NCBI GenBank assembly: GCA_017463615.1
Contig: JAFTOU010000004.1
Span: 29,319-93,318 of the forward strand
Length of the DNA: 64,000 nucleotides
Direction of reading: 5' to 3'
Source of the DNA: Alistipes sp.
Lineage (GTDB): Bacteria; Bacteroidota; Bacteroidia; Bacteroidales; Rikenellaceae
Shown: in pieces, positions 30,035 to 44,245 of the stretch
Position numbering within the stretch: position 1 is the first letter of the stretch
Layout: the number at the start of each line of letters is the position of its first letter
Program-made: the position numbers and the translations under genes
Notes under the pieces: generated by a model
The model's input: only the letters and a program-made list of their open reading frames with translations
The model's database searches: none
What the model was told of the DNA's origin: nothing

Positions 30035-31021
30035 TTACAACCACTTCTTGTACTTGAAGAAGCCCATAGTAAGCAGCGAGGCGAGAATCATCAGACCCAG
30101 GGCGAAGATATATCCCACAGGGATGGTCATACCGTTCTCAAGGGTCCAAATCCACTCCAGCTCGGGCATAAACTTGAAGTTCATACCGTAGATACTTGCC
30201 ACAAGGGTTGCGGGCAGGAAGACCACGGCAGCGACGGAGAAGATCTTAACCACCTCGTTCTGCTCAATATTGATAAGACCCAGAGCCGCATCCTGGATAT
30301 AGTCCAGACGCTGGAAGGTGAAGTCCGTATGGCTAATCAGCGAGCTTACATCCTTAATCATCAGCTGCAGGCGTGGGTAGATATCGTTCGGGAAGCGCTC
30401 GGAGCGGTGTATGCCCGAGAGTACGCGCTGGCGGTCAAAGATATTCTCGCGCAGCACCATCGTACGCTCCTGCAGGGTGTTGATGCGCTGGATAACCTCC
30501 TTGTCGATGCTATCCTCGCGGTTGATATCCTTGCTCAGCGCCGATACCTGGCGACCGACCATCTCTACAAGGTCGGCGTCAAAGTCAATACGCACCTCAA
30601 GCAGCGAGATGAGGATATGGTAGCCGGTGGAGTAGTTGCGGTAGTTCATCTGTAGGCGCTTCTCCGCCTCGCGGAAGGTGCGCATATCTGCCTGACGCAC
30701 AGAGACTAACACACCCTCGTTAGAGAGCGTGAACGATACAGGCTCAACCTTGAATGAGTCGCCACCGACGGGAACGAAGAAGTTGCTATTGGAGATAATT
30801 GCGTTCTCCGACTCCGAGTACTTTGATGTAGACTCAATCTCCTCCACCTGCTGGCGGGTCTGGAGGTTTATCTCCATAAAGTTCTCTACGGCCTTCTGCT
30901 CCTTGATTGTGGGTTGCATCATATCAATCCACAAAATGTCGTCAAAACCCAAATCGTCAAACAGCTCTGTGTCGGCGTTTCGGATAATCTTGTTGTATTG
31001 CTTTAGATAGATTGTAATCAT
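30035..31021 (-). CDS. corA: CorA-family Mg2+/Co2+ transporter
   Basis: ASIYGMNF signature followed by MPEL and two C-terminal TM helices. Confidence 0.92.
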   Translation of the reverse strand: MITIYLKQYNKIIRNADTELFDDLGFDDILWIDMMQPTIKEQKAVENFMEINLQTRQQVEEIESTSKYSESENAIISNSNFFVPVGGDSFKVEPVSFTLSNEGVLVSVRQADMRTFREAEKRLQMNYRNYSTGYHILISLLEVRIDFDADLVEMVGRQVSALSKDINREDSIDKEVIQRINTLQERTMVLRENIFDRQRVLSGIHRSERFPNDIYPRLQLMIKDVSSLISHTDFTFQRLDYIQDAALGLINIEQNEVVKIFSVAAVVFLPATLVASIYGMNFKFMPELEWIWTLENGMTIPVGYIFALGLMILASLLTMGFFKYKKWL

Positions 31022-31092: not shown

Positions 31093-31866
31093 TCAGCCGG
31101 GATTGACCTTAGGCTCAATCTTGAGTCCAAAGTCCCAGAACTTCTTTAGTGCTTTATGCTTCTGACTATCAAAAAGGAAATCAATATTCTCGGTAAGGTA
31201 GCTGTAGGCGTAGTCCTTCTGAGCATAGTCGCTCTCCATAATCGCCTCGTAGATATGCTCCACGCCGTATGTCAGGCAGCGCTGCAGGGCGTCGTGCACC
31301 TGATAGCTAAGACCCTTGCGTGCCACCCAGAGGGCAAAGGCAAATGGCAACTTTGTCTGCGCAATCCACTCCGAGGCAAGGTCGTAGCTGTAGGCAAAGC
31401 GACCCTCGTAGCCGAAGCACTTGTCGCCAATAATTAGGAAGGCGTCGCCCGGCTGCGGATTATCCAGCAGGGTGTAGTCGTCCAACGCAAGATACTGAGG
31501 CGCAATCTTCCAGCGGTGCTTTGCCAAGTAGCCCACCAGCTGCACAGATGTGCGAGAGTGGCAGTCCATCCAGATGCGCTCCACACGCTCTATAGGGGTG
31601 TTGCTCACAACCAAAACCGTGCGCACAGGGCCCACAGCGCCGATGCAGTAGTCGGTAATCACCTGCGCATCCTTGAGCGTTGGCACTACGGCAGCAGGCA
31701 GCAGAGCAAGGTCTACCTTACCCTCTATAAAGTGTTGTACATTCTCAGATGGGGGCGCAATGATTAGCTCGGCGCAAAGACTACCTTCGTGCCGAATACC
31801 ATAGAGGAATGGTATCGTATTGAGATACGATATTGCTGCTATTTTTGCATTGATAACCATCACCAT
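31093..31866 (-). CDS. mqnA: Chorismate dehydratase (futalosine menaquinone pathway)
   Basis: ISYLNTIPF, IGAVGPVRTV, SRTSV, LIIGD, DLASEW..T.LPFAFALW motifs; start at 31866 or 31860. Confidence 0.88.
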   Translation of the reverse strand: MVMVINAKIAAISYLNTIPFLYGIRHEGSLCAELIIAPPSENVQHFIEGKVDLALLPAAVVPTLKDAQVITDYCIGAVGPVRTVLVVSNTPIERVERIWMDCHSRTSVQLVGYLAKHRWKIAPQYLALDDYTLLDNPQPGDAFLIIGDKCFGYEGRFAYSYDLASEWIAQTKLPFAFALWVARKGLSYQVHDALQRCLTYGVEHIYEAIMESDYAQKDYAYSYLTENIDFLFDSQKHKALKKFWDFGLKIEPKVNPG

Positions 31867-31872
31867 CCATAG

Positions 31873-32095
31873 TTAAGGGAGGTTCTATAAATTAGTAAAC
31901 TTTTTATCGCTATTGGAAGATTCTATTTCGGTTGCTTTTGAATTTATTTCAGTATCTTTTCCATCTTTCCTCAGTTACAATAGGCTATTGCGCCTTCAGA
32001 AGAGATGAAAAATCTACTTGAAATAATTTTCAAAATCAACTCGACTAATTTACAGAACCTCCCTTAATAGGGTGCAAGTTGGAGAACTTGACCCC
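31873..32095 (-). ncRNA. Candidate structured RNA (long rod with asymmetric bubble) in the mqnA 5' leader
   Basis: 24-bp closing stem 32067-32044/31896-31873 with one G.U pair on the minus strand; further paired segments inside; small 5' hairpin at 32070-32095. Confidence 0.5.
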
Positions 32096-32113: not shown

Positions 32114-32265
32114 GTATTTTTTTTGCACAGAGTATGCCCTGAGGGCAATTTTTTTCAAAAAAAGAGATTTTTTTGGGGCTTTAACAACTTTGGCGTGAAG
32201 AATTTAGCCACCAGCGCCCTGCGGAAAATCACTTTGCCCTCTTGACAAGGGCTATTTTTGTGTTA

Positions 32266-32578: not shown

Positions 32579-32983
32579 ATGAACCGAAAAACTCTAATTT
32601 CGGCGGTGGAGCAGAGCTGTGCCCTCAGTGGTTACAACTTTGCAACCCTGACGGCAGAGAGTATTGCCGCCCACCCGCCACATTTCCCCGTCGCACTGCT
32701 TGCAGAGCCCAAGTTCCAATCTATCACCGGTCGCCACCACGGCAGAATAACCTACGCCCTGACCCTCCACCTGCTTGTGCAGGGGGCATACCTGCCGCCC
32801 GAGCAGCGTAGAGAGGCGCTCTCAACCCTCCAGTCGCACGCCCTTGAAATCTTCTCAAACCTCTCCACCCATCCCCAGGTGGCACTCGTGCAGGAGCTGA
32901 CCATCAACCCCACCGCCCACACCCTCCTGAACAAGGGCGAGCTGGGTATCACCTGCCAGGCGGAAGTGGAGGTCATCTTTTAA
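32579..32983 (+). CDS. Hypothetical protein, possible phage tail-completion/terminator-like
   Basis: 134 aa; size and FPVALL...G..TY.LTLHLL pattern resemble tail terminator proteins; first gene of the virion cluster. Function is inferred. Confidence 0.35.
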   Translation: MNRKTLISAVEQSCALSGYNFATLTAESIAAHPPHFPVALLAEPKFQSITGRHHGRITYALTLHLLVQGAYLPPEQRREALSTLQSHALEIFSNLSTHPQVALVQELTINPTAHTLLNKGELGITCQAEVEVIF

Positions 32984-32990
32984 CCATTGA

Positions 32991-33115
32991 TTTTGGTGTG
33001 ATAGTGGGGCATATACGGCACATTCCTCAATTTGCTGAATGGGCAGTACGCCTTAGTACAGTCCATCCAACAAATTATCACGATGCACCGTATCTACCCC
33101 ACTCTGACACCAAAA
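32991..33115. repeat. Palindromic element family A, copy 2
   Basis: ttttggtgtgatag...ctctgacaccaaaa IR; core gcagtacgccttagtacag; near-identical to 38713-38836. Confidence 0.85.
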
Positions 33116-33129
33116 TAGCCAATGGTTAC

Positions 33130-33303
33130 AACCATTAGCTATTAGCCATTGGTCATTGGCTTTTCAGCGGTATCGCCTGCGGCGATGGTGTTTATAGGGT
33201 GCAATATGTAGTCAGATTGCAAATAGCAACCTCTAAACACTATCCGCGCAGCGGATACCTTAATAAAGCCAATAGCCAACAGCCAATAGCCAACAGCCAA
33301 ACA
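33130..33303. repeat. Palindromic element family C, copy 2
   Basis: ccattagctattagccattgg...gcggtatcgcctgcggcgat...tttatagggtgcaa...tatccgcgcagcggataccttaataaagccaatagccaacagccaatagcc; near-identical to 38850-39024. Confidence 0.85.
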
Positions 33304-33310
33304 AAAACCT

Positions 33311-34282
33311 ATGATTACAATCGTTTCACAACCAGCAGATTTTACCCCGATAGAGAGTGGGGTAGTATATGTCGTGGAGAGTGACTACTCCGGCGACTTT
33401 CTAATCAAGATTATCAACAACACTACGGGCGAGGTGGTGGGGAGCAAGGCGGTCGTGGCCTCTATCCGCGCGGCGGTAGATATTGCTCCGTACATCACCG
33501 CCATCACTGCCGCCGAGCCCGCCCAGCAGGGGGTATTCTCCTTAGCGCCAGCCCCTGCGGAGGAGTACTACATTGAGGTTACCACCGACGAGGAGAGTGA
33601 GGTGTCGGAGGTGGTGCGTGTGAGCAACAACCGCCGAGTGCCGAAGTTGGGCAGCGTGCAGAGCATCTTCGGCCTGAGTCGCAAGATAAGCTATGGCGAG
33701 GATGACGAGCTGCGCTTTACGGCGGCGAACAACAGCACCATAGTGGCACGCATAACCACCGACAGAGGCGAGGTGGTAGAGCTTGAATGCTATGCCCCCT
33801 ATGGCGTTGCGGTGCTGCACATAGCAACGGCGCAGTTGGACTATCGCACCAGCCGCTTTGAGGTGGAGTTCTATGCCGATGATGTGCTGATGCAGAGCGT
33901 GGAGTATGCCGTAGTGCCGCGCTACGAGGGTGCTGTGAGGGTGGCGTGGCTCTCGGAGGAGGGGACTGTTGAGCGTCACACCTTCCGCCAGACCCTCTCC
34001 AAGAGTGTTGCCACGCAGCGAGATACCCTCTTTACCAACCGTCAGGGCGAGCATATCGTCCGCTGCCGAAGTGCCAAGCGTATAGCTCTGCGCTCGCACC
34101 CCCTCACGGAGGCTGAGACGGATGCGTTAGCGACGATACTCAGCGCGCCGAAGGTCTGGATAGAGAGCCTTCAGATGGCCGTCGCCCGCCCATTGGATGT
34201 GGAGGCTGTGACCTACAGCTTCGGTAAGTTGGCAAGGGTAGACCTCACCCTTGAGTATGGCGAGGAGGAGGTGGTGCTATGA
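33311..34282 (+). CDS. Phage-like structural protein (distal tail/baseplate-like)
   Basis: N-terminal MITIVSQPADF and C-terminal VRVAWLSEEGTVERHTF...ILSAPKVWI resemble Bacteroidetes siphophage tail-region proteins; coupled to the hub-like gene. Confidence 0.45.
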   Translation: MITIVSQPADFTPIESGVVYVVESDYSGDFLIKIINNTTGEVVGSKAVVASIRAAVDIAPYITAITAAEPAQQGVFSLAPAPAEEYYIEVTTDEESEVSEVVRVSNNRRVPKLGSVQSIFGLSRKISYGEDDELRFTAANNSTIVARITTDRGEVVELECYAPYGVAVLHIATAQLDYRTSRFEVEFYADDVLMQSVEYAVVPRYEGAVRVAWLSEEGTVERHTFRQTLSKSVATQRDTLFTNRQGEHIVRCRSAKRIALRSHPLTEAETDALATILSAPKVWIESLQMAVARPLDVEAVTYSFGKLARVDLTLEYGEEEVVL

Positions 34283-36651
34283 TGCTCTATGTAGATGGGT
34301 GCAGCTGTCCGATAGAGGGCTCGCCCAAGTTGCCCACGCTCTTTGCCATAGATAGCCTCACAGACCCGCAGCAGGCGATGCAGGGTCAGGTACTGGAGCT
34401 TGAAATACCCTCCACAGCCGCCTCAGACGCTATATTCGGTGTTGCGAGGGATATATATGCTGCCCAGCGATTTAACGACAGCCACCATACTGCCGTAGTG
34501 GTCTGCGAGGGTGTGGAGCTCTTTGAGGGTACGATATATATCCTGAGCAGCACCATGGCGCAGCGCCACGGCGGAAGCTATCGGGTGCGCATAGCCGCAG
34601 GAGGTGCCGACTGGGCTAAGCGCGCGGCGAGGACGACACTGCGCAGTAGCGGCCTGGAGTTTGAGACCACGCTCACGGCGCAGAGCATTATGGATAGCTG
34701 GTCGGGGAGTAAGGATGTGCGCTTTCTGCCCGTGCTCCGCAATAGGTACTCGCCCATCTACTCGGGCTACTCGGGCGCACCTGTGGAGTATATCATGACG
34801 GCGGACGATTTTCATCCATACTTCTCCTTGGCGGCGCTCCTTGAGCGTATATTTGACGGCTATACCATTGAGGGCGACTTTATAAATAGCAGCGAGCTGC
34901 GCCAGCTATATATCAGCGGTCAGTATGCCTCGCCCGACACCATCAAGCAGCGCGCCCTGCTGGACTTTTTCGCTCGTCGCAAGGATAGGGCGACGGCGGT
35001 GGCGGATGAGTGGGGTATGGTCTACGCCACGGAGAGCTTTGACGGCGATAGCGCGCTGGGAAATATCGTAGATACTGCCGACCCTACGGCGGTAGATTGC
35101 GATGGCGCGGTGATGCACGACACCTTCACCACGGGCAAGGTCTTTACTATCAACGAGGAGGGCTATTGTCAGTTTACGAGCACCATAGCCGCCACGGTGG
35201 GTTTCCTGCTCCACCTGAAGTACACCACCGACTACCGCATAGCCTCGCGCACAAGCCTCTGTGGCTTCAACCGCGTTGTTGCCGAGCCCGATGTGGATGT
35301 CTCCTTTACGCTGGCGAATGTCTTTGAGGATCAGCGTGAGAAGTTGGTCGGGGGCATAGAGTACAGCCTCTGCATCTTTGACTATGTGCCCGACAACCTC
35401 TACCTGCTAACTGTCTACGATGCCGATAGTGGCTCTAAGCTCGCGGAGCATGTCGTAGAGTCCCGCTTCAGCCGCATAACTATGCCCGAGGGTTGCACGC
35501 CACACTGCACGCTGGAGCTTATGTCGGGCGAGAAGGAGCAGGGGCAGAGCGACTGGGCGCTCTACTTCGGCTATGTGGAGGAGTGCGGCAAGACAGAGGT
35601 TATCGTAGACCTTCGCATACCGCCGCAGGACTTTGCGCCCGAGCAGACTATGCGCTTCAACCGCATAAAGTTCGGCGGGGCAGAGCAGGGTATGGAGATA
35701 ACCCTCTCTACCGAGTGCTCGCTGCGCCCATACTTCTCCACCGTGCCAGGATATGGCTCTACGGTGACCTTCGCCGACATCTCGCACACCAATATCTGGC
35801 TCATAGAGCTTGTGGACGCCCTCTGTCGTATGTTCAACCTTGTAATCCACACCGACGAGAAGAGCCGCCGCGTGAGGATTGAGCCTATGGAGAGCTTCTA
35901 CAGCGACAAGGTGTGGGAGTGGAGCGATAGGGTAGACTTCAGCTCGCCAATAACCATCAGCGACATGGGTGTAGATGTGCCGCACACTCTGGAGTGGGGC
36001 TATCGCTCGGGCGACTGGGCTACGGAGCAGTTTAACGAGCTCAACAACACGCAGTTTGGCGTTTGGCAGGTGGAGAACGGCACCTATGGCGCAAAGAGCA
36101 GCACCCGCCGCAACACCGTCAGCCTCTTCACTACGGGTATAAATCGTACGGGACACTACGCCCTTGCCCCCTCAGCCTCCATTATGCAGGTGGGCGATAG
36201 TGCCGCCGAGGGTAGTATGGACGCCCCCTTTACCACCCATATTGTCCGCTATGTGGGGCTCAGACCCCTGCCCGAGGGGGAGCGGTGGGGCTACCCGCTG
36301 AGTGATAATCGCTATCCGCTCTCGGCATTCTTCTTCCCGGGGGATAGGTATACCGAGGGCTTCTCGCTCTGCTACGAGGATAGAGAGGGCATTGCGGGTC
36401 TCAACCGCTTCTTCAAGGATGCCGTCGCCCGCCTCACCACACGCCAGCGGCTGAGCCTCTCGCTGCACCTCACACCCGCAGAGCTTGCCCGCCTGCTCTC
36501 TACAGAGGAGAATAGCTTTGCAAGCCTTAGCGACAACTTCCGCCTTGATATTCTGGGCGAGAGCTCGCTCTACCGCATTGAGAGCCTTCAGAGCTACGAC
36601 GCCGAGCGCCAGAGTGCAAAATGTACACTTATCAGATTAACCAAAGACTAA
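34279..36651 (+). CDS. Phage tail tip / baseplate hub-like protein
   Basis: N-terminal MLYVDG...LEIPST..SDAIFG...ELFEGTIY...YRVRI and later LCRMFNL...RVRIEPMESFY...WEWSDRVD resemble Bacteroidetes siphophage hub proteins. Confidence 0.55.
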   Translation: MMLYVDGCSCPIEGSPKLPTLFAIDSLTDPQQAMQGQVLELEIPSTAASDAIFGVARDIYAAQRFNDSHHTAVVVCEGVELFEGTIYILSSTMAQRHGGSYRVRIAAGGADWAKRAARTTLRSSGLEFETTLTAQSIMDSWSGSKDVRFLPVLRNRYSPIYSGYSGAPVEYIMTADDFHPYFSLAALLERIFDGYTIEGDFINSSELRQLYISGQYASPDTIKQRALLDFFARRKDRATAVADEWGMVYATESFDGDSALGNIVDTADPTAVDCDGAVMHDTFTTGKVFTINEEGYCQFTSTIAATVGFLLHLKYTTDYRIASRTSLCGFNRVVAEPDVDVSFTLANVFEDQREKLVGGIEYSLCIFDYVPDNLYLLTVYDADSGSKLAEHVVESRFSRITMPEGCTPHCTLELMSGEKEQGQSDWALYFGYVEECGKTEVIVDLRIPPQDFAPEQTMRFNRIKFGGAEQGMEITLSTECSLRPYFSTVPGYGSTVTFADISHTNIWLIELVDALCRMFNLVIHTDEKSRRVRIEPMESFYSDKVWEWSDRVDFSSPITISDMGVDVPHTLEWGYRSGDWATEQFNELNNTQFGVWQVENGTYGAKSSTRRNTVSLFTTGINRTGHYALAPSASIMQVGDSAAEGSMDAPFTTHIVRYVGLRPLPEGERWGYPLSDNRYPLSAFFFPGDRYTEGFSLCYEDREGIAGLNRFFKDAVARLTTRQRLSLSLHLTPAELARLLSTEENSFASLSDNFRLDILGESSLYRIESLQSYDAERQSAKCTLIRLTKD

Positions 36652-36661
36652 CTAAACGACT

Positions 36662-37492
36662 ATGAATCAGATTATTAACATCTCCGCGACGGCTACCGTT
36701 GCGACGATAGACATCGAGGGCATTATCGGCAGTCAGAGCGAGAGCGGCGCTATTACAACCTATCAGGCACTGAGCGAGCGACTGCAGCAGATAGAGGCTA
36801 TACAGGCACCTATGGTGGTGGTAAATATCCGCTCTGTGGGTGGTAGCGTTGCCGATGCGCTGCTAATCTACGAGGCTCTGCGCTCGCTGGATGCCCATAT
36901 CACCACCCGCTGCTACGGATATACCGCCTCGGCAGCTACCGTTATCGCCCAGGCCGCCAGCGAGGGTAGCCGCGAGATTGCCTCCACGGCGCTATACCTT
37001 ATCCACAACTCATCCTGCATCGCCGAGGGTAACGCTGCATCCCTTGCCCAGCAGGCAGAGCTGCTGCGAAAGACCGACGAGCGCATCGCCGCCATATACG
37101 CCGCCAACTCAGGCCGTAGCGCCGACCACTTTGCGGAGCTTATGGCTCGCAATGGTGGCGATGGGGTGTGGCTCTCGCCCGAGCAGGCGGTGGAGGCGGG
37201 ACTGGTAGATACCATCATCACCTCCGATGCAACCCCTACAGCCTCGCTCATCGAGCGCGTGGCTGCGTGGTTGGGCATCAAGAGCAAGAGCGCAAAGCCA
37301 ACGCCCCAACCCCCTACCGACCGCCTCAACATCCTGCCTCAGCAGGGTCTCTGCACCCCTATAACCCTCTCCGAGGGTCAGCTCGCCGTGCAGAGGAGCG
37401 CCACCCAGCCCGTTGAGGACCCCGACTTTGACGGCAGAGCCATGACTGCTAACGCTACTGCCTATAATCGTGACATTGCAGCATTTTTCTAA
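36662..37492 (+). CDS. ClpP-like (S14) prohead maturation protease
   Basis: VNIRSVGGSVADALLIYEAL, GYTASAATVI (catalytic Ser), YLIHN (His), VWLSPEQAVEAGLVD; immediately upstream of the capsid-like gene. Confidence 0.85.
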   Translation: MNQIINISATATVATIDIEGIIGSQSESGAITTYQALSERLQQIEAIQAPMVVVNIRSVGGSVADALLIYEALRSLDAHITTRCYGYTASAATVIAQAASEGSREIASTALYLIHNSSCIAEGNAASLAQQAELLRKTDERIAAIYAANSGRSADHFAELMARNGGDGVWLSPEQAVEAGLVDTIITSDATPTASLIERVAAWLGIKSKSAKPTPQPPTDRLNILPQQGLCTPITLSEGQLAVQRSATQPVEDPDFDGRAMTANATAYNRDIAAFF

Positions 37493-37496
37493 TTAT

Positions 37497-37745
37497 TAAC
37501 CATTAGCTGTTAGCTATTGGCTCGCTTTCAGCGACCCTTCCTCCTTGCGGCTCGGCATAGCAAACTTTGTTTGCTCTGCTCTCGCTCCGCAGCGTCGGTT
37601 GGCTTTTCAGAGGTATCGCCTGCGGCGATAGAGTTTATAGGGTGCAAGAGGTAGTCAACCCTGCAAACAGCAACCAATACTATCCGCATAGCGGATACCT
37701 TAATAAAGCCAACAGCTAATGGCCAATGGCTAAAAGCCAAAAAAA
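37497..37745. repeat. Palindromic element family C, copy 3 (long form)
   Basis: Matches 5024-5270 in its left half and 33130-33303 in its right half; heptamer IR ends. Confidence 0.8.
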
Positions 37746-37756
37746 ACACTAAAACT

Positions 37757-38710
37757 ATGCTTATTGAAAATCCAAAGACTTACAAGGGCAGCGATGCCGA
37801 GACAATCTTTTTCCGTCCAACTTTTTGCGGAGATAACGCCACAGAGCTGGGTATCCGCGTACTCTACAATATGCCTATGCCGACCACCGTACAGGTCTGG
37901 AGCCGTGCAGAGAATGTTCTGCAGCCATTTGCCAGCGGTTGGAATGGCGGCTCAAACTCGCAGAAGCTGCAGAAGACCATTGATATGCAGAAGGTGAAGG
38001 CAGAGACCAGCTTCTCTGCAGACGACTACTTCTCTATGGTGCTTGAGAAGCTCGTAGCCGACAATGGTGTTAATTATCAGGACCTTACGGGCACAGAGCT
38101 TGAGAAGGCAGAGACCGAACTCTTCCGTCAGGCTATTGCCGAGGGTGTGCGTAGCACCATGTGGATTGGCGACACCTCCGAGGAGATATCGGAGCTTACG
38201 ACCTTCAACGGTTTCTTCCGCCATATCGCCGATGCGGGCGACAAGGTAGCCTCTACTATCGCTGGCGATGACGAGTTTACCGCTACCGAGCAGCTCAAGG
38301 GTTGCTGGACGCAGGCTGCAGACGAGCTCCGCTCACTGCGTTCGGAGGGTCAGCTGGTCTACTTCGTCAGCTCGGACATCTACAACGCCTACCTTGACGA
38401 GCTTGACCAGAAGGGGGTAGATACCGCCTACACCGATATTGTCAGCGGTCAGGGCACGCTCTGCTACCATGGCATCCCAGTTGTGGAGGTTCCGCTGGGC
38501 AACTACACCCAGGCATGCTACTCATCCTTCTGCCTGCTCACCGACCGTCGCAACCTTGTCCTCGCCCTCAATACTGCCGATATGCCTGAGAATGAGGTTC
38601 GTATGTGGTACAACCCCGACCAGATGGAGAACCGCCAGCGCGCTGTCTTCCTCGCTGGCGCAGAGATTATTGATGAGAAGTTGATTTCAATTTATCACTC
38701 CGACCATTAG
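37757..38710 (+). CDS. Putative major capsid protein (HK97-fold inferred)
   Basis: 317 aa directly after the prohead protease; MWIGDT....FNGF, LCYHGIPVVEVP and LLTDRRNLV patterns resemble Bacteroidetes phage capsids. Confidence 0.65.
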   Translation: MLIENPKTYKGSDAETIFFRPTFCGDNATELGIRVLYNMPMPTTVQVWSRAENVLQPFASGWNGGSNSQKLQKTIDMQKVKAETSFSADDYFSMVLEKLVADNGVNYQDLTGTELEKAETELFRQAIAEGVRSTMWIGDTSEEISELTTFNGFFRHIADAGDKVASTIAGDDEFTATEQLKGCWTQAADELRSLRSEGQLVYFVSSDIYNAYLDELDQKGVDTAYTDIVSGQGTLCYHGIPVVEVPLGNYTQACYSSFCLLTDRRNLVLALNTADMPENEVRMWYNPDQMENRQRAVFLAGAEIIDEKLISIYHSDH

Positions 38711-38712
38711 CC

Positions 38713-38836
38713 TTTTGGCGTGATAGCGGGGCACCTACGGCACATCCCTCAATTTGCTGAATGGGCAGTACGCTTAGTACAGCCCATCCAACAAATTCTC
38801 ACGATGCACCGTATCTGCCCCACTCTGACGCCAAAA
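38713..38836. repeat. Palindromic element family A, copy 3
   Basis: ttttggcgtgatag...ctctgacgccaaaa IR; core gcagtacgcttagtacag. Confidence 0.85.
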
Positions 38837-38849
38837 TCACCAATGGTTG

Positions 38850-39024
38850 ATAACCATTAGCTATTGGCCATTGGCTTTTTAGCGGTATCGCCGTAGGCGA
38901 TGGTGTTTATAGGGTGCAATATGCAGTCAGCCTTGCAAATAGCAATCTCTAAACACTATCCGCGCAGCGGATACCTTAATAAAGCCAATAGCCAATAGCC
39001 AACAGCTAACAGTCAACAGCCAAA
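38850..39024. repeat. Palindromic element family C, copy 4
   Basis: Near-identical to 33130-33303; follows an A copy in the same arrangement. Confidence 0.85.
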
Positions 39025-39027
39025 ACT

Positions 39028-39414
39028 ATGTCCTACAAACCGATTGGCGGAGTGCAGAGCGTGGCTCTGCGCTTCGTGGCGGTGACGGAGCAGATTGCCG
39101 TGCCGCTAATAGACGACGCCTCGGAGTATAAGCAGACGGTAGTGGCCTCTGAGCTGGGCGTGGTGCATCATGTGCTGACCCTTGTGGCGCGGCGAGATGA
39201 TGCCCAGCCGTGGCTCGGGGAGGAGTTTGCCCTGAGGGCGGTGTTGGAGGGTGTGGTTGCAACGCTGACGCTTGAGGATGGCAGGGAGTGCACTCTTGGT
39301 AGCCCTGACATCCCCCTGCGCCTTGACACGCTGCAATCAACATCGGCACTCTCGCCCTCGGACGAGCCCACCGTAACGCTCACACTCCGATGTGAAACAT
39401 TAACATTAAACTAA
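39028..39414 (+). CDS. Hypothetical protein, possible short tail-tube-like protein
   Basis: N-terminal IGGVQSV and LEDGRECTLG...LRL....S...SD..TVTLTL resemble Bacteroidetes phage tail tube proteins; 128 aa. Confidence 0.35.
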   Translation: MSYKPIGGVQSVALRFVAVTEQIAVPLIDDASEYKQTVVASELGVVHHVLTLVARRDDAQPWLGEEFALRAVLEGVVATLTLEDGRECTLGSPDIPLRLDTLQSTSALSPSDEPTVTLTLRCETLTLN

Positions 39415-39420
39415 AACCTT

Positions 39421-40635
39421 ATGAGTAAAATAACAAAAATTTGCGGTCAAGCCTCCACCGCCACCGACCCCTACAGCTATCGTGCGGGCAGGGTTGAGAG
39501 TCGCCAATTTTGGCGCTGGGGCAGCGACAACCGCCTGCCGCAGCTGCTCTCGGCGGTCTCGCGCTGCTCCACGACCCACCGCCGAATAATCAACGACAAG
39601 GCGGACTACATCTCGGGCAAGGGCTTTGTCTTTGACAGCTCACAGCCCCTGCTTGAGCAGTTTGTCGGGCGCGTGAATGGGTCGGGAGAGTCGTTGCGCC
39701 AGCTGATAAACAAGGTGGCCTTTGACAAGGCGCTCTTCGGTAACGCCTTTGTGGAGGTTGTTACCGATGCCGACCACACCTTCCTCTCGCTCTACCATCA
39801 GGATGCTGTGCGCTGTCGCGTGGCGAAGGACTCCGAGCATATCCTTATGCACCACGACTGGGATACCTTCAAACCTCAGGAGGCCATTAGCCTGCCGCTC
39901 TATCCCGCCTTTGAGTCGCAGGAGGATGGCACGCTGCGCTCTATAATCCACTACAAGGACTACGAGCCGGGCTTTGAGCACTACGGCGTGCCGCCCTATA
40001 TCGCGGGCCTTGGTGTGAGCGCAATAGCCTATAAGACAGACCGTTGGAACATCTCACGATTGGACAACTCCTTCCAGCCCTCGGGCGTTATGATTCTGGA
40101 CGATGTGGTGGATAGCGAGGCGGAGGCGGAGCGTATTGTCCGCAATGCCGAGGAGCGCTTCTCAGGCAGACCCGGTCAGGTGATGTTCGTGGTCAAGGAT
40201 GGTACGGAGAGCGATAAGTCGCGCTTTGTGCCCATATCGTCGGACAACGACGGCGACTGGGCGGCGCTACATACGCAGGCGACCAACGATATTGTGGTTG
40301 CGCACTCGTGGTTTCGCTCGCTCAGCGGTCTGGACTACGCCACGGGCTTCAACTCCGAGCGAATACTGCACGAGTACGAGATTGCCCTCAACACCGTAAT
40401 CCTGGGCGAGCAGGCGGAGTTGCTTGAGCCGCTGCGCGAGGTGGTGGAGCGCGTGCTGGGGGTAGATACCTCCTCGTTAGAGTTTGTCAATCGCCCACCG
40501 ACTCGCTCCAAGCCTATATATATGAAGGTGTGGGAGGCTCGCCGTGCCGATGGCCTGGAGTACGACCCTCAGGATGAGGAGCAGCAGTGCTTCCTGTCAG
40601 AAATCACAAAGTATAATGTAACAAAAATCGGATGA
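39421..40635 (+). CDS. Phage portal protein
   Basis: WGSDNRLPQLL....STTHRRIINDKADYISGKG, VAFDKALFGNAFVEV, HYGVPPY, NSFQPSGVM are Bacteroidetes-phage portal-like motifs; 404 aa. Confidence 0.85.
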   Translation: MSKITKICGQASTATDPYSYRAGRVESRQFWRWGSDNRLPQLLSAVSRCSTTHRRIINDKADYISGKGFVFDSSQPLLEQFVGRVNGSGESLRQLINKVAFDKALFGNAFVEVVTDADHTFLSLYHQDAVRCRVAKDSEHILMHHDWDTFKPQEAISLPLYPAFESQEDGTLRSIIHYKDYEPGFEHYGVPPYIAGLGVSAIAYKTDRWNISRLDNSFQPSGVMILDDVVDSEAEAERIVRNAEERFSGRPGQVMFVVKDGTESDKSRFVPISSDNDGDWAALHTQATNDIVVAHSWFRSLSGLDYATGFNSERILHEYEIALNTVILGEQAELLEPLREVVERVLGVDTSSLEFVNRPPTRSKPIYMKVWEARRADGLEYDPQDEEQQCFLSEITKYNVTKIG

Positions 40636-41108
40636 TGAATACCCTAATTACACCCCAGCAGGTGGTAGATATCGCCTTTGCGGGCTCATTTTACCTCTCG
40701 CCGCAGAGTATCGGCAGCGCAGATATTGTAGCCGCCACGGCGCGATATGTTGAGCCTATTGCGGGTCGGGCGTTGATAGATGCCCTCGCGGAGGGGAAGT
40801 ACGCCGAGCTGCTTGAGAGCTATGTCGTCCCCGCCCTCGCCTTTGCCGTCAGGGCACTGGTGCAGCCCGCCCTTGCCCTGCGTATGGGTGAGGGAGGACT
40901 CGCTGCCCCGCGCACAGAGAGCTCAACAGCCCCCACCTCGGAGGCTACAAGGGCGCTGCAACGCTCCGTCACAAAGCGTGCTCGGCAGCATCTGCACCGA
41001 CTCTCGGACCACCTGAACAACAACGCTTCGCTATATGCGGAGTATGACCCTAAGTTGAACATTCTAAATCGTTGCTCTATAGATGGAGGCCTTGTACAGA
41101 CTTTTTAA
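40632..41108 (+). CDS. Putative head-tail adaptor protein
   Basis: MNTLITPQQV...YVEPIAGRALIDAL...LLESYVVPALAF helical pattern; coupled to the portal gene. Confidence 0.5.
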   Translation: MMNTLITPQQVVDIAFAGSFYLSPQSIGSADIVAATARYVEPIAGRALIDALAEGKYAELLESYVVPALAFAVRALVQPALALRMGEGGLAAPRTESSTAPTSEATRALQRSVTKRARQHLHRLSDHLNNNASLYAEYDPKLNILNRCSIDGGLVQTF

Positions 41109-41511
41109 CTCGCTCTTCCTCTCACTTGTCGCCCTCTTTGCCCCTGTGCAGTCGGTGATATACTGCGCCCTGAGCTTTGTTGCCGTGGATTTCGTCAGTG
41201 GTGTGCTTGCCTCGCGCGCCACGGCACACAGAGAGGGTCGCAAGTGGTACTTCGAGAGCCGCGAGGCGTGGCGAACACTCTATAAGACGGGCTTTGTCAC
41301 CCTCGCCATCGCCCTTATGTGGGCATTGGAGAGCTGCGTGCTCAACTTCGTAACCCTGAACCTCACTAAGCTCTTCGCCGGCTTTATCTGCTCGGTGGAG
41401 ATGTGGTCGTTCCTTGAGAACGCCGCTCAGCTCTCTGACGCGCCACTATTTGAGTGGATGAGAAGATATTTACACCGTAGAATTGAAAAACAGATAGATA
41501 ATGTCAAGTAG
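41083..41511 (+). CDS. Phage holin family protein
   Basis: TM helices with VAVDFVSGV, AWRTLYK, ICSVEMWSFLEN (holin-4-like) and a basic C-terminus. Confidence 0.8.
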   Translation: MEALYRLFNSLFLSLVALFAPVQSVIYCALSFVAVDFVSGVLASRATAHREGRKWYFESREAWRTLYKTGFVTLAIALMWALESCVLNFVTLNLTKLFAGFICSVEMWSFLENAAQLSDAPLFEWMRRYLHRRIEKQIDNVK

Positions 41512-41920
41512 ATTAAGCCGAGGTCTTCGCAATCTCAACCCTGGAAATATCCGCCGCTCCAAAACCCGCTATAAGGGCGAGAAGAGTCACTCCACCGACC
41601 CCGCTTTCAAGCAGTTTGAGAGCCTTGAGTGGGGATATAGGGCGGTATTTATGCTGCTGCACACCTATCGCGTGCGTGGCTATGGCGACACTATCGCTAC
41701 GATGATTGCTCGCTACGCTCCACCCTCGGAGAACGATACTCAGGCGTATATCAACCGCCTTGTTCGCGCCACAGACATCGCCGCCGATGCCCCGCTTGAT
41801 ACGCTCAGTGGCGAGCAGATGATACCCCTCGTCTGCGCCATCTCGGCAGTTGAGAACGGCGTGGCGGCAGATAGGGAGGCGGTCACTCGTGGCTGGGAAC
41901 TCTTTATTTCATCTTTATAG
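41501..41920 (+). CDS. P5-like phage protein, putative lysozyme-fold endolysin
   Basis: RGLRNLNPGNIR, FKQFESLEWGYRA, IARYAPPSENDTQAY, AISAVENG motifs; follows the holin. Confidence 0.75.
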   Translation: MSSRLSRGLRNLNPGNIRRSKTRYKGEKSHSTDPAFKQFESLEWGYRAVFMLLHTYRVRGYGDTIATMIARYAPPSENDTQAYINRLVRATDIAADAPLDTLSGEQMIPLVCAISAVENGVAADREAVTRGWELFISSL

Positions 41921-43055
41921 CGAGTAGATGGGTGCCGATGCGCGTAAAACACCAGCGGGAGTCGGCACCCTCTTTTGCTGAGAATTTACGGCATATCTCG
42001 CTGTTGGATAGCGGGAAGTCACGACGGAATATCTCTATGCGCTGCCCCTTTAGCGCTCGCTTAAGCTCCTTATTACCAACCTCATAGATAGCCTCAATGC
42101 CGAATGTGCGACCCACAACACCCTCTGGATACTCGGTGCTCAGTGCCACACCGTTATTACTCCACACATCGGCCTTGCCCATAAAAGCAGCGGCGGTGAG
42201 GCGGGAGTGGACGAGTGCCACATCGGGCAGTGTTATATAGTGGTATGAGTCAAAATTTTCGGGCACCTGCGCAAAGCTGTAGTTGCTAAGGTCGCTATAG
42301 CGGATAGCGAAACTTCCGATGCCGATAGCTGTGGCTGAGAGCCTTGGCTCGCCATCCTCTATGTGGATATTCACCTCCTTGCACTCGCCACCGAGGGAGA
42401 CGGTCTGCACGGAGCACTGCTCAAACTTACGGAACGCCTCGGCAGTGTCAAAGAGTGGCGAACACTTGATGCAGATTTTGTCGCCCACCTCGCGCAGACG
42501 GGGATATAGGGCGACCATATTTGGCGAACAATCCTCAAGCAGCACCCTTCGCTCACCACTCTCCGAGCGGCGGTCGGGGTCGGCAAATATCCAGTCAAAG
42601 TGGTCGGTTGTCGCTGCCAAATACTCCTCGGCAGATGCGCAGATAACCTCCACATTCTCAGCCCCTAACAGCTTGAGGTTGTGGCGCGTAACCTCAGCCA
42701 GCACCTCGTCGCGCTCTAAGGATACGACCCTTCTGAACTTGCGCGACAGAGATAGCGTATCAACGCCCAAGCCGCAGGTCAGGTCAAGGACAGACTCGCC
42801 CGTAAGTTGCTTATTTATAGCACATTGCTCGCTGGATGACTGCTCGTATGCACGCGGAGGCAGTATCGCCCTTACGGCATAGTATGACGGCAGCTTAGCC
42901 CTTGCCCTCTGCAGGCGTTTTACCTGCGTGGCGACTAACGAGGCGTGGTCAAGATGCTTGTCAAGCGCAATATCTATCGGGTTGCACTCTATGCGCTGGC
43001 AGATAGCCTCTCGCACCTCTGGGCGGGTTAATATCTGAAACTGCTCGGCTGTCAT
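41904..43055 (-). CDS. Class I SAM-dependent methyltransferase with THUMP-like domain
   Basis: EQSSSE, VLDLTCGLGVD, WIFADPDRR, IKCSPLFD, GECKE motifs; C-terminus overlaps the lysin gene by 17 nt. Confidence 0.8.
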   Translation of the reverse strand: MTAEQFQILTRPEVREAICQRIECNPIDIALDKHLDHASLVATQVKRLQRARAKLPSYYAVRAILPPRAYEQSSSEQCAINKQLTGESVLDLTCGLGVDTLSLSRKFRRVVSLERDEVLAEVTRHNLKLLGAENVEVICASAEEYLAATTDHFDWIFADPDRRSESGERRVLLEDCSPNMVALYPRLREVGDKICIKCSPLFDTAEAFRKFEQCSVQTVSLGGECKEVNIHIEDGEPRLSATAIGIGSFAIRYSDLSNYSFAQVPENFDSYHYITLPDVALVHSRLTAAAFMGKADVWSNNGVALSTEYPEGVVGRTFGIEAIYEVGNKELKRALKGQRIEIFRRDFPLSNSEICRKFSAKEGADSRWCFTRIGTHLLAIKMK

Positions 43056-43058
43056 ACG

Positions 43059-44081
43059 CTAACTCTCTGTGGTACTCAGTAGTCCGCACGCCGCCTTGAT
43101 ATCCTCGCCGCGGGAGGCACGGATGGTGGTCATTATGCCGCGTGCTGTGAGGGCATCGCGGAAGGCGACAATCTTCTGCTGCTCGGGCGAGAAGTATGGC
43201 GAGCCGGGAATCTTGTGAAAGCGGATAAGGTTTATGCGGCACTTGATGCCGTTGAGTAGGCGGCAGAGCTCCTTGATATGCTGCGGGGTGTCGTTCAGCC
43301 CGCTCATAACGATATACTCAAACGATACTCGGCGCTGATGTGTGAAGTCATATCGGCGCAGGGTCTGCATAATGTCGGCGATAGGGTAGGCACGCTCAAT
43401 AGGCATAATCTGCGCGCGCTGCTCGTGGAATGGATTGTGGAGCGATATGGCAAGGTGCACAGAGGTGCTCTCAAGGAATCGCTCAAGCTCGCGACCCACG
43501 CCCGAGGTAGATACCGTAATGCGCGTTGGTGACCATCCGTAGCCCCACTCGGCAGTCATAATCTCTAATGCCGCGAGCAGGTTCTCCATATTGTCAAATG
43601 GCTCGCCCATACCCATGTAGACCACATTGGTGAGTGTTTCCCGCTCAGGCAGTGAGGCTATCTGGTTGAGTATCTCGCACACCGAGAGCGAGTGTATCAA
43701 CCCCATGCGTCCCGTAGCGCAGAAGTCGCAACCCATGCGGCAGCCCGCCTGTGAGGAGACGCAGAGCGTTGCGCGCTCGCCATCGGGAATATATGCCGAC
43801 TCGATAGCCGCCCCCTGACTGGTCTTGTAGAGGTACTTCTTCGTCCCATCTGCCGAGGTGGTGACCTTCACTGGCGGGGTAAGACCTACGCAGTAGCGCT
43901 CGCTCAGCTTGGCGCGGTTGGCCTTAGATAGGTCGCTCATCTGCTCAATATCCGTAGCTCCACGACGGTAGAGCCATCCGGCAATCTGCTTGGCCGCAAA
44001 GCGGGGCATAGCAAGCTCGGCGCAGAGGCTCTGCAGCTGGGCGAGAGTCATACCATAAAGTGGCTTTAGTGGGGTGCTCAT
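43059..44081 (-). CDS. rlmN: Dual-specificity RNA methyltransferase RlmN
   Basis: CVSSQAGCRMGCDFC, VYMGMGEPFDN, ITVSTSG, LAISLH, DIKAACGLL motifs; start at ATG 44081. Confidence 0.95.
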   Translation of the reverse strand: MSTPLKPLYGMTLAQLQSLCAELAMPRFAAKQIAGWLYRRGATDIEQMSDLSKANRAKLSERYCVGLTPPVKVTTSADGTKKYLYKTSQGAAIESAYIPDGERATLCVSSQAGCRMGCDFCATGRMGLIHSLSVCEILNQIASLPERETLTNVVYMGMGEPFDNMENLLAALEIMTAEWGYGWSPTRITVSTSGVGRELERFLESTSVHLAISLHNPFHEQRAQIMPIERAYPIADIMQTLRRYDFTHQRRVSFEYIVMSGLNDTPQHIKELCRLLNGIKCRINLIRFHKIPGSPYFSPEQQKIVAFRDALTARGIMTTIRASRGEDIKAACGLLSTTES

Positions 44082-44245
44082 ATATGCGTATTGGTTATAA
44101 TTCTTCACAAAAGTATAGATTTTTCGCGATTTTTTTATAAGATTCTCTTTTTTTTGAAAAATAATCTTTATATTTGTACCAAAGTATGCACGCGTAGTGT
44201 TGGACGGGTGCTGTAGTGTGACAAATAATTAAAACTTAACTTATA

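Follow-up and report, generated by a model that had tools for sequence, protein, structure and literature searches.

To our knowledge, only a handful of gene transfer agent (GTA) lineages are known, almost all of them in Alphaproteobacteria, and the first from a gut commensal, the FpGTA of the Bacillota, was reportedly described in 2026. GTAs of the RcGTA type (Rhodobacter capsulatus, and CcGTA in Caulobacter) consist of a phage-derived set of head, tail, and lysis genes without genes for replication or integration; the set is found clade-wide, is inherited vertically under purifying selection, occupies several chromosomal loci, and comes without a sequence-specific small terminase subunit (TerS) of the phage type. 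The same traits are seen in the element described here, which lies at positions 32579–41920 of a window of 64,000 nucleotides (the whole stretch of DNA that was analyzed) from Alistipes sp. in the family Rikenellaceae, phylum Bacteroidota (assembly GCA_017463615.1, contig JAFTOU010000004.1, positions 29,319 to 93,318 of the forward strand). We regard it as probable that this block encodes the structural and lysis functions of a phage-derived particle system that has been domesticated and is spread over more than one locus. In the domestication and the multi-locus architecture as such we have high confidence; that DNA-filled particles are produced and released by lysis is also probable from the gene content, and true gene transfer is put forward more tentatively.

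As judged from its nearest relatives (Bacteroidales siphophages and a phage in IMG/VR), and not from a direct protein comparison, the Rikenellaceae element differs from RcGTA in having an independent origin. It further differs in that the terminase itself is split off and is accompanied by a CI/LexA-like self-cleaving repressor instead of GafA/CtrA-type control, and in that it lacks a tape measure and an identified tube. As for FpGTA, which is found in Faecalibacterium and for which long reads of 8.4–8.9 kb were obtained from virus-like particles (VLPs), the likeness lies in a compact ten-gene operon of ~10 kb, in a host that is a dominant commensal of the human gut, and in near-ubiquity within the host group (PMC12946183). 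FpGTA is also short-tailed in morphology (PMC12946183), and the Rikenellaceae element is without long-tail genes. FpGTA, however, has both TerS and the large terminase subunit (TerL) inside the operon, whereas the Rikenellaceae system is unrelated to it in sequence and split over loci, and its particles are predicted from the gene content.

PBSX of Bacillus subtilis is, like the present element, chromosomal, and is an SOS-inducible defective phage released by a lysis cassette; the portal proteins are linked by a weak match to model TIGR01540. Unlike the Rikenellaceae element, PBSX is contiguous over ~28 kb, has a contractile tail, a tape measure and both terminase subunits, and occurs in few species. 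The absence of family matches for sheath, tube, and tape measure in the cluster sets it apart from tailocins as well. The capsid-forming phage-inducible chromosomal islands (cf-PICIs) resemble it in bringing their own capsid protein, portal, protease, connector, and packaging genes without a full tail, but they are mobile (integrase, att sites, and replication genes) and patchy in distribution, whereas the Rikenellaceae element is fixed, split, and tracks the host phylogeny. Its closest functional analogues are the RcGTA-type agents and FpGTA, and by descent it is a member of neither. Our literature searches found no description of a GTA in Alistipes, Rikenellaceae, or Bacteroidota, and turned up no VLP data for Rikenellaceae.

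Some of the properties that are characteristic of GTAs are found, in the following form. Virion genes reside in the host chromosome without replication, integration, or excision genes of their own; they are vertically inherited and under purifying selection across the host clade; and the loci are dispersed (contigs C40 and C3 in the source genome, G000, and 0.7–2 Mb apart in six complete genomes), so a particle would probably be unable to carry the whole system. An earlier note, made from the letters of this DNA and a list of its open reading frames (ORFs), had proposed a host-maintained, GTA-like operon and not a decaying prophage, and this view is borne out by the family-wide and nearly single-copy distribution, dN/dS (the ratio of nonsynonymous to synonymous substitution rates) well below 1, and congruent trees.

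The block comprises ten co-oriented ORFs, all on the plus strand and full length without internal stops, as the earlier note had it. They are labeled g1–g10 from 5′ to 3′, and these gene labels are distinct from the genus labels used below, among which genus g1 is the source genus. Assignments were made by scans against Pfam, PHROG, and NCBIfam, and for g2 and g3 by AlphaFold2 modeling combined with Foldseek searches. Family matches were obtained for six genes (g4, g5, g7, g8, g9, and g10), and these bear out the protease, capsid-like gene, portal, holin, and lysin that had been read from the letters. The gene g4 (36662–37492) encodes a ClpP-type prohead (head maturation) protease (PF00574, 3e-28; phrog_94, 5.9e-44; NF045542, 1.7e-31), and g5 (37757–38710), which adjoins it on the 3′ side, encodes the major capsid protein candidate (phrog_1623 “virion structural protein”, 2.5e-10), with a mean column identity of 65% across 6 orthologues; the capsid profile has no sequence match in the PDB. 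The portal, g7 (39421–40635), is recognized by PF04860 (4e-11) and phrog_11226 (3.5e-23), and its match to the PBSX-type model TIGR01540 (6e-14) is weak and falls under the cut-off of that model. The lysis genes are g9 (41083–41511), a holin (PF05105, 4.4e-12; phrog_199) that is 42–78% identical in relatives by tblastn, and g10 (41501–41920), an endolysin that resembles transglycosylase-type enzymes (phrog_873, 2.4e-36) and is 47–75% identical in relatives.

The gene g8 (40632–41108) encodes a DUF6712 protein (PF20459, 2.4e-11) and directly follows the portal gene in all genera and in the related phage discussed below. It is this position only that points to a head–tail adaptor role, and the designation as an adaptor-like gene found no support beyond it. 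In genome G076 of genus g31, the DUF6712 orthologue (locus L033, 6373–7521) contains a low-complexity insert of ~220 residues that is rich in Thr, Ser, Glu, Asn, and Gln.

Among the genes without family matches, g3 (34279–36651, plus strand, 790 aa) is the most informative. It has no sequence-family match, and its fold relationships were found by Foldseek instead. The AlphaFold2 model, built on 34 homologues, has a mean confidence (pLDDT) of 88.7 and a predicted TM-score (pTM) of 0.83, and matches PDB entries for the cyanophage A-1(L) baseplate initiator, the lambda tail tip, the monocin tip, VgrG, and baseplates of extracellular contractile injection systems (eCIS), and in addition ~146 viral proteins in BFVD (best E 6e-39). 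On the strength of this model, g3 has a tail-hub fold and is predicted to be a tail-tip or baseplate hub-like protein; that it might be a divergent terminase was considered and is ruled out by the hub fold. In all, 80 full-length homologues of g3 were found. The gene is full-length in 39/55 genomes, every time just upstream of the portal and without internal stops.

The preceding gene, g2 (33311–34282, plus strand, 323 aa), yields a model of lower confidence (pLDDT 77.8), with three Ig/FN3-like β-sandwich domains and Foldseek matches to Ig/FN3 tandem domains. The earlier assignment of two tail/hub-like genes therefore holds for g3, but g2 is not demonstrably a hub. Homologues of g2 are 31–51% identical, or 22–36% by tblastn, and it is the fastest-evolving gene of the cluster. 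The model makes it a candidate for an exposed or receptor-binding tail protein, and a rapidly changing Ig-domain tail tip on a conserved head is what we would expect if the particles recognize variable cell surfaces. The first gene of the operon, g1 (32579–32983, plus strand, 134 aa), has no match in Pfam, PHROG, or NCBIfam, and tblastn places orthologues of 23–46% identity at the same position in several genera. The small gene g6 (39028–39414, plus strand, 128 aa), located between capsid and portal, is also without a family match. It had been proposed as a tube-like gene, but nothing shows it to be a tube; tblastn finds orthologues only in a subset of genomes (29–44% identity), and in the related phage this position is occupied by an ORF of 180 aa. 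Sequence searches of the PDB with g2, g3, the capsid profile, and the g8 profile returned nothing informative.

The scans of the cluster detected no integrase, replication gene, or terminase, and a repeat search found no att-like direct repeat flanking the block, in agreement with what had been noticed from the letters. The corresponding statement about repressor and terminase holds for the block, whereas the genome contains both at another locus. In genus g31 (G076), a single cluster contains a divergent CI/LexA-like repressor with helix-turn-helix (HTH) and S24 domains, two small ORFs, TerL (PF03237), protease, capsid, portal, and the DUF6712 gene. When the G076 TerL was used as query, TerL was found in 48/55 genomes, single-copy in most; the seven genera in which it is missing are precisely those without the portal, and the two genes are distributed almost identically across genomes. 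In the source genome, TerL is located on contig C40 (348204–349616), the structural cluster being on contig C3, and is an intact protein of 470 aa (PF03237; phrog_38, 6.9e-85). No variation was seen among 20 genomes in the Walker A (PPQHGKS) and Walker B (LDD) motifs or in the acidic nuclease residues. Beside it lies a divergent repressor (HTH_3 and Peptidase_S24; phrog_4, 1.3e-34), as is also the case in genera g1, g31, g41, and g42, and an ORF of 97 aa overlaps the TerL start. This three-gene module (C40, 348204–350723; locus L048, 9205–11724) is embedded in housekeeping genes. Directly 3′ of TerL and on the same strand are genes for an extracytoplasmic function (ECF) sigma factor, an anti-sigma-like zf-HC2 protein, an outer membrane protein (OMP) β-barrel protein, and a DUF4252 protein.

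The distance between TerL and portal differs widely among genera. In genera g26 and g31 it is 2–3 kb, with only the protease and capsid genes in between. In genus g41 it is 10–12 kb, and one genome (G093) has two opposite-strand host genes between TerL and gene g1. Genus g42 shows 10 kb and 18 kb in two genomes and ~0.75 Mb in a third (G110), genera g40 and g21 show 48–168 kb, and in the six complete genomes of genus g1 the separation reaches 0.7–2 Mb. The simplest reading of this series is an ancestral element that was contiguous over ~12 kb and was later pulled apart, with the order repressor, small ORF, TerL, g1-g2-g3, protease, capsid, (g6), portal, g8, holin, and lysin. Genera g26 and g31, which are early-branching, have the repressor, TerL, protease, capsid, and portal contiguous; their clusters are without g1–g3, and no holin or lysin was detected beside them.

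A third piece of the system is possibly represented by an orphan DUF6549 gene in the source genome (C40, 256128–256715, minus strand), whose product (195 aa) combines a membrane anchor at the N terminus with a coiled coil. The gene shares 55% identity with the one that closes the lysis cassette of the related phage, and it stands between a gene for a PLP-dependent (pyridoxal phosphate) sulfhydrylase-like enzyme and one for a BamD-like lipoprotein. DUF6549 occurs in 25/55 genomes, inside the cluster in genera g21, g24, g30, g31, and g34, and unlinked to it in the source genus.

With respect to distribution, the portal was found in 24/24 sampled genomes of the same genus, in 136/151 genomes of the family (21/28 genera), nearly always as one copy and at 47–81% identity, and in 0/16 genomes from other families of the order. 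Internal stops were apparent in the portals of genera g25, g26, and g31, which raised pseudogenes as a candidate explanation; in the three cases that were aligned (g26 and g31), the protein is slightly shorter and the stop codon is its genuine end. The same truncated gene content is present in at least 17 genera. As for the site, in at least 10 species of the genus the cluster is flanked by corA-mqnA on one side and the methyltransferase on the other, but its neighbors differ between genera, and the idea of a shared mqnA/rlmN locus consequently applies within the genus and not across the family. In G184, the closest relative, the orthologous cluster is compact (8.5 kb) and free of interspersed repeats, and cluster and methyltransferase share one strand there, unlike in G000. 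Two genomes differ at the conserved site: in G129 it is empty, with no cluster gene (locus L042, contig C11), and in G152 only the lysin g10 is left (locus L043, contig C21), while TerL and DUF6549 are still present elsewhere in both. These two sites are counted as recent losses.

The vertical descent of the element was examined by means of portal, TerL, and methyltransferase trees for 20 genomes from 10 genera, with the methyltransferase, present in 55/55 family genomes, serving as the housekeeping yardstick. The three trees share their main groups: g26 and g31 stand apart from the rest, the pairs g23+g43, g42, and g41 recur, and the source genus has an identical internal order in each. Patristic distances are strongly correlated, with Mantel r of 0.79 for portal and methyltransferase, 0.87 for TerL and methyltransferase, and 0.76 for portal and TerL (p = 2e-4 in each case), and portal divergence proceeds at 0.61 times the methyltransferase rate. 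Pairwise dN/dS for the portal is 0.06–0.20, even at dS of ~0.65–1.8. Agreement of the gene trees with that of the host, and dN/dS well below 1, had been named beforehand as checks; the former was found with a housekeeping gene tree, and the latter for the portal. When the seven element-free genera are added to the methyltransferase tree, they fall on one side of a single branch, albeit with weak support (73/48), and one gain or one loss therefore suffices to explain their status. As judged from tree congruence and substitution rates, the element has been inherited vertically from an ancestor of most Rikenellaceae genera and maintained under purifying selection.

Conservation is uneven along the operon. 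Across the genus, tblastn identity to G000 is 61–81% for the portal, 52–75% for the lysin, and 47–78% for the holin, followed by 49–65% for the capsid, 42–64% for the protease, and 35–53% for g8; it is 30–58% for g3, 31–46% for g1, and 34–44% for g6, and g2 is the least conserved at 23–36%.

The origin of the element was traced by comparison with phages. A search of 50,697 deposited phage genomes related TerL, at 51% identity, to the terminases of lytic Bacteroides siphophages from the B40-8 group. For capsid and g3 it yielded a single matching record, MT838736.1, and for the portal this record and MT838805.1 only. Both entries are unannotated scaffolds labeled “UNVERIFIED: Bacteriophage sp.” from Mexican human fecal samples. 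The former (locus L109) is a fragment of a Rikenellaceae chromosome with mqnA and g1 through portal, and the latter matches only the C-terminal end of the portal, at one scaffold end. IMG/VR contributed 22 loci, mostly chromosomal clusters that had been called viral; several uncultivated virus genomes (UViGs) classified as “provirus” or “linear”, such as those at L117–L123, are chromosomal clusters and not phages.

One IMG/VR provirus is of a different kind. UViG_3300029766_000276 is a temperate phage of 44.2 kb, with near-identical contigs that are up to 91% complete. Its gene order begins with a CI-like repressor, helicase, ParB-like protein, replication initiator, DnaC-like loader, TerS (phrog_309), and TerL, continues with three small ORFs, genes resembling g2 (301 aa) and g3 (838 aa), a tape measure of 1491 aa, protease, and capsid, and ends with a 180-aa ORF, portal, a DUF6712 gene, tail fibers, holin, glucosaminidase, and DUF6549. 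The late genes are thus in the same order as in the host element, with identities of 59% for TerL, 67% for the portal, 46% for the capsid, and 38% for g8. By these values, no complete phage is a close relative of the element. The phage differs in carrying a replication module, TerS, a tape measure between the g3 counterpart and the protease, and tail fibers, and in a lysis cassette composed of holin, glucosaminidase, and the DUF6549 gene. When all phage ORFs were searched against G000 with tblastn, the only hits were CI (weakly), TerL, g3, protease, capsid, portal, g8, DUF6549, and host-like ParB and glucosaminidase. The replication genes, TerS, tape measure, and fibers of the phage have no homologue anywhere in G000 by this search, beyond the host-like ParB. 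In terms of predicted gene content, the host element equals the phage minus replication genes, TerS, tape measure, and fibers. A search for orphan terminase, tape measure, and regulator genes had been advised; it delivered TerL with its repressor, but no tape measure in the genome. The permuted gene order that had been remarked on is real, but because the living phage shares it, it is native to the source phage lineage and not a product of domestication.

Because the repressor–TerL junction is common to both architectures, one ancient capture is the simplest reading, and the sequence relationships point to an independent capture in Bacteroidota. A placement of the living phage as strict outgroup to the chromosomal copies was considered; the maximum-likelihood (ML) trees place it otherwise, but an outgroup position is compatible with approximately unbiased (AU) tests (p = 0.09 for TerL and 0.17 for the portal). 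Two genomes, G021 (locus L020, contig C31) and G121 (locus L039, contig C19), contain a second and more divergent head module with a portal that is 51–59% identical. In the capsid tree, the second copy of G121 groups with the living phage lineage, and that of G021 is on a separate long branch. These second copies are probably resident prophages of the source phage family that exist beside the domesticated element.

Based on the gene content, a working cycle can be outlined as follows. A signal such as DNA damage would lead to self-cleavage of the S24 repressor, and the small ORF and TerL would be de-repressed. The structural operon, probably transcribed from a host-type promoter upstream of g1, would provide procapsids of portal, protease, and capsid protein, into which TerL would pack DNA. 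Because a sequence-specific TerS of the phage's type is lacking, the heads are expected to be filled with host DNA. The products of g8, g6, g1, g3, and g2 could then form a short tail-tip structure without a tape measure, and holin and lysin would lyse a subpopulation of the cells and release the particles. The outcome may be either DNA delivery, as in a true GTA, or only the killing or binding of cells. At its most far-reaching, which we advance tentatively and with some doubt, the proposal is that the Rikenellaceae, including Alistipes, have the first GTA-like system known in Bacteroidota, and one of a new design. In this design the motor would be set apart from an operon for head, tail tip, and lysis, and placed under a self-cleaving SOS-type repressor; tape measure, tube, and fibers would have been lost, and a fast-evolving Ig-domain tail tip kept. 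Damage-induced cells would package chromosomal DNA into short-tailed particles, release these by lysis, and in this way move genes among abundant commensals of the human gut.

A number of observations weigh against this proposal. Particle making, packaging, and transfer are predictions from gene content. No tail tube, tape measure, or TerS was identified, and the element may be unable to make a tail of the infectious type. The short reading frame that precedes TerL measures 97 aa in G000 and 123 aa in G093, with two of 88 and 78 aa in G076; no PHROG match and no detectable resemblance to a TerS were found for it. The ORFs in this position in G000 and G076 have no detectable similarity to each other, and weak tblastn similarity (26–31%) links the one in G000 to genera g41 and g42. 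No operator or motif is shared between the repressor–TerL intergenic region and the region upstream of g1, so co-regulation of the two loci is hypothetical. The two regions have in common only a 13-mer near the mqnA start and a chance-level 9-mer inside a repeat, and no palindromes. In the ML trees, the living phage attaches near the base of the clade with genes g1–g3, and not outside all chromosomal copies, which makes two captures from related phages possible. Finally, a few lineages (G129 and G152) lost the head locus but kept TerL, which suggests that TerL may have a use of its own.

The candidate for the host-type promoter is a match to the Bacteroidota housekeeping consensus (TTTG...TAnnTTTG) at 32233–32260 on the plus strand, ~320 nt 5′ of g1; the window contains 4 such matches, compared with 0.68 expected. 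The shared 13-mer, ATAAATTAGTAAA, is found at window positions 31887–31899, ~20 nt upstream of the mqnA start codon, and at L048 10913–10925, ~10 nt upstream of the 97-aa ORF before TerL. It may be due to chance in an AT-rich leader.

An alternative is a defective phage or killer particle of the PBSX type, where DNA-filled or empty particles would bind and damage competing strains through the g2/g3 tip with no productive delivery. The same question is raised for FpGTA by the paper that describes it (PMC12946183). The Ig-like domains and rapid evolution of g2 are as expected of surface recognition in an arms race, the lysis cassette is conserved, and the repressor is of the SOS-cleavable type, as in PBSX-like elements. 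On the other hand, the genome has no genes for sheath, tube, or tape measure, and neither a contractile nor a long puncturing tail could be built, and the packaging ATPase–nuclease, which would be needless for killing alone, is intact and under selection. We consider a pure killing function unlikely.

Slightly less probable still is a fixed, helper-dependent head module, i.e., an immobile satellite for defense and/or transduction that takes tubes, tape measures, or fibers from infecting relatives of the source phage. A suitable helper exists, since the living temperate phage, with its 67%-identical portal and homologous g8, has exactly the tail parts that the host element lacks, and G021 and G121 carry the element together with a second, phage-like copy. 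However, the element brings its own holin, lysin, and repressor switch, which suggest that it can be induced independently of infection. It is also present in ~90% of family genomes, whereas the phage is only sporadic, and unlike known capsid-forming satellites it has no genes for integration, replication, or excision.

The persistence of TerL and repressor in the two genomes without the head locus, one of which (G152) keeps only the lysin at that site, and of an orphan DUF6549 lysis-cassette gene alone among housekeeping genes, would agree with the co-option of single genes without any particle. Examples would be regulated autolysis that releases extracellular DNA or vesicles, or TerL as a damage-induced nuclease, with the head genes simply carried along. 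This is difficult to reconcile with portal, capsid, protease, and hub genes that are intact and evolve more slowly than the housekeeping methyltransferase across 21 genera; genes that were merely carried along would have decayed, and we regard this explanation as improbable. An ordinary decaying prophage remnant would account for the lack of integrase, replication genes, tape measure, and tail fibers, but in view of the family-wide single-copy distribution of intact ORFs, dN/dS of 0.06–0.20, trees congruent with that of the housekeeping gene, and the same truncated gene content in at least 17 genera, it can be practically dismissed.

The block is surrounded by housekeeping genes, and the flanks, mqnA on one side and methyltransferase–rlmN on the other, are as had been described. 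According to family scans, cstA, a sulfatase gene, corA (30035–31021; PF01544), and mqnA (31093–31866, minus strand; PF02621, 6e-38) are located upstream, and the genes for a SAM-dependent (S-adenosylmethionine) methyltransferase (41904–43055, minus strand), rlmN (43059–44108, adjoining the methyltransferase), tonB, and hflX downstream. The methyltransferase gene is convergent with the lysin gene g10, and the 3′ ends of the two overlap by 17 nt (41904–41920). A host interspersed repeat of up to 310 nt with internal palindromes is present in three spacers of the operon and nowhere else in it, and no ORF is broken. The copies, to which no strand is assigned, lie between g1 and g2 (32991–33300), between protease and capsid (37497–37740, partial), and between capsid and g6 (38713–39016). 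In G000, the repeat families (D1–D5) account for 179 blastn high-scoring segment pairs on 23 contigs.

Chromosomal clusters of this kind already appear as “provirus” or “Bacteriophage sp.” in the output of virus-prediction pipelines and in GenBank virome records, and virome counts are inflated as a result. If the proposed particle system is real, it would constitute an independent phage domestication that permits a before-and-after comparison through a living phage of the same gene order, and it would be unusual in its architecture, where an SOS-type switch would control a separated terminase and the tail would have no tape measure. In the human and animal gut, Alistipes and related bacteria are abundant and have high rates of gene exchange, and for them the system would represent a new route of gene flow or of strain interference.

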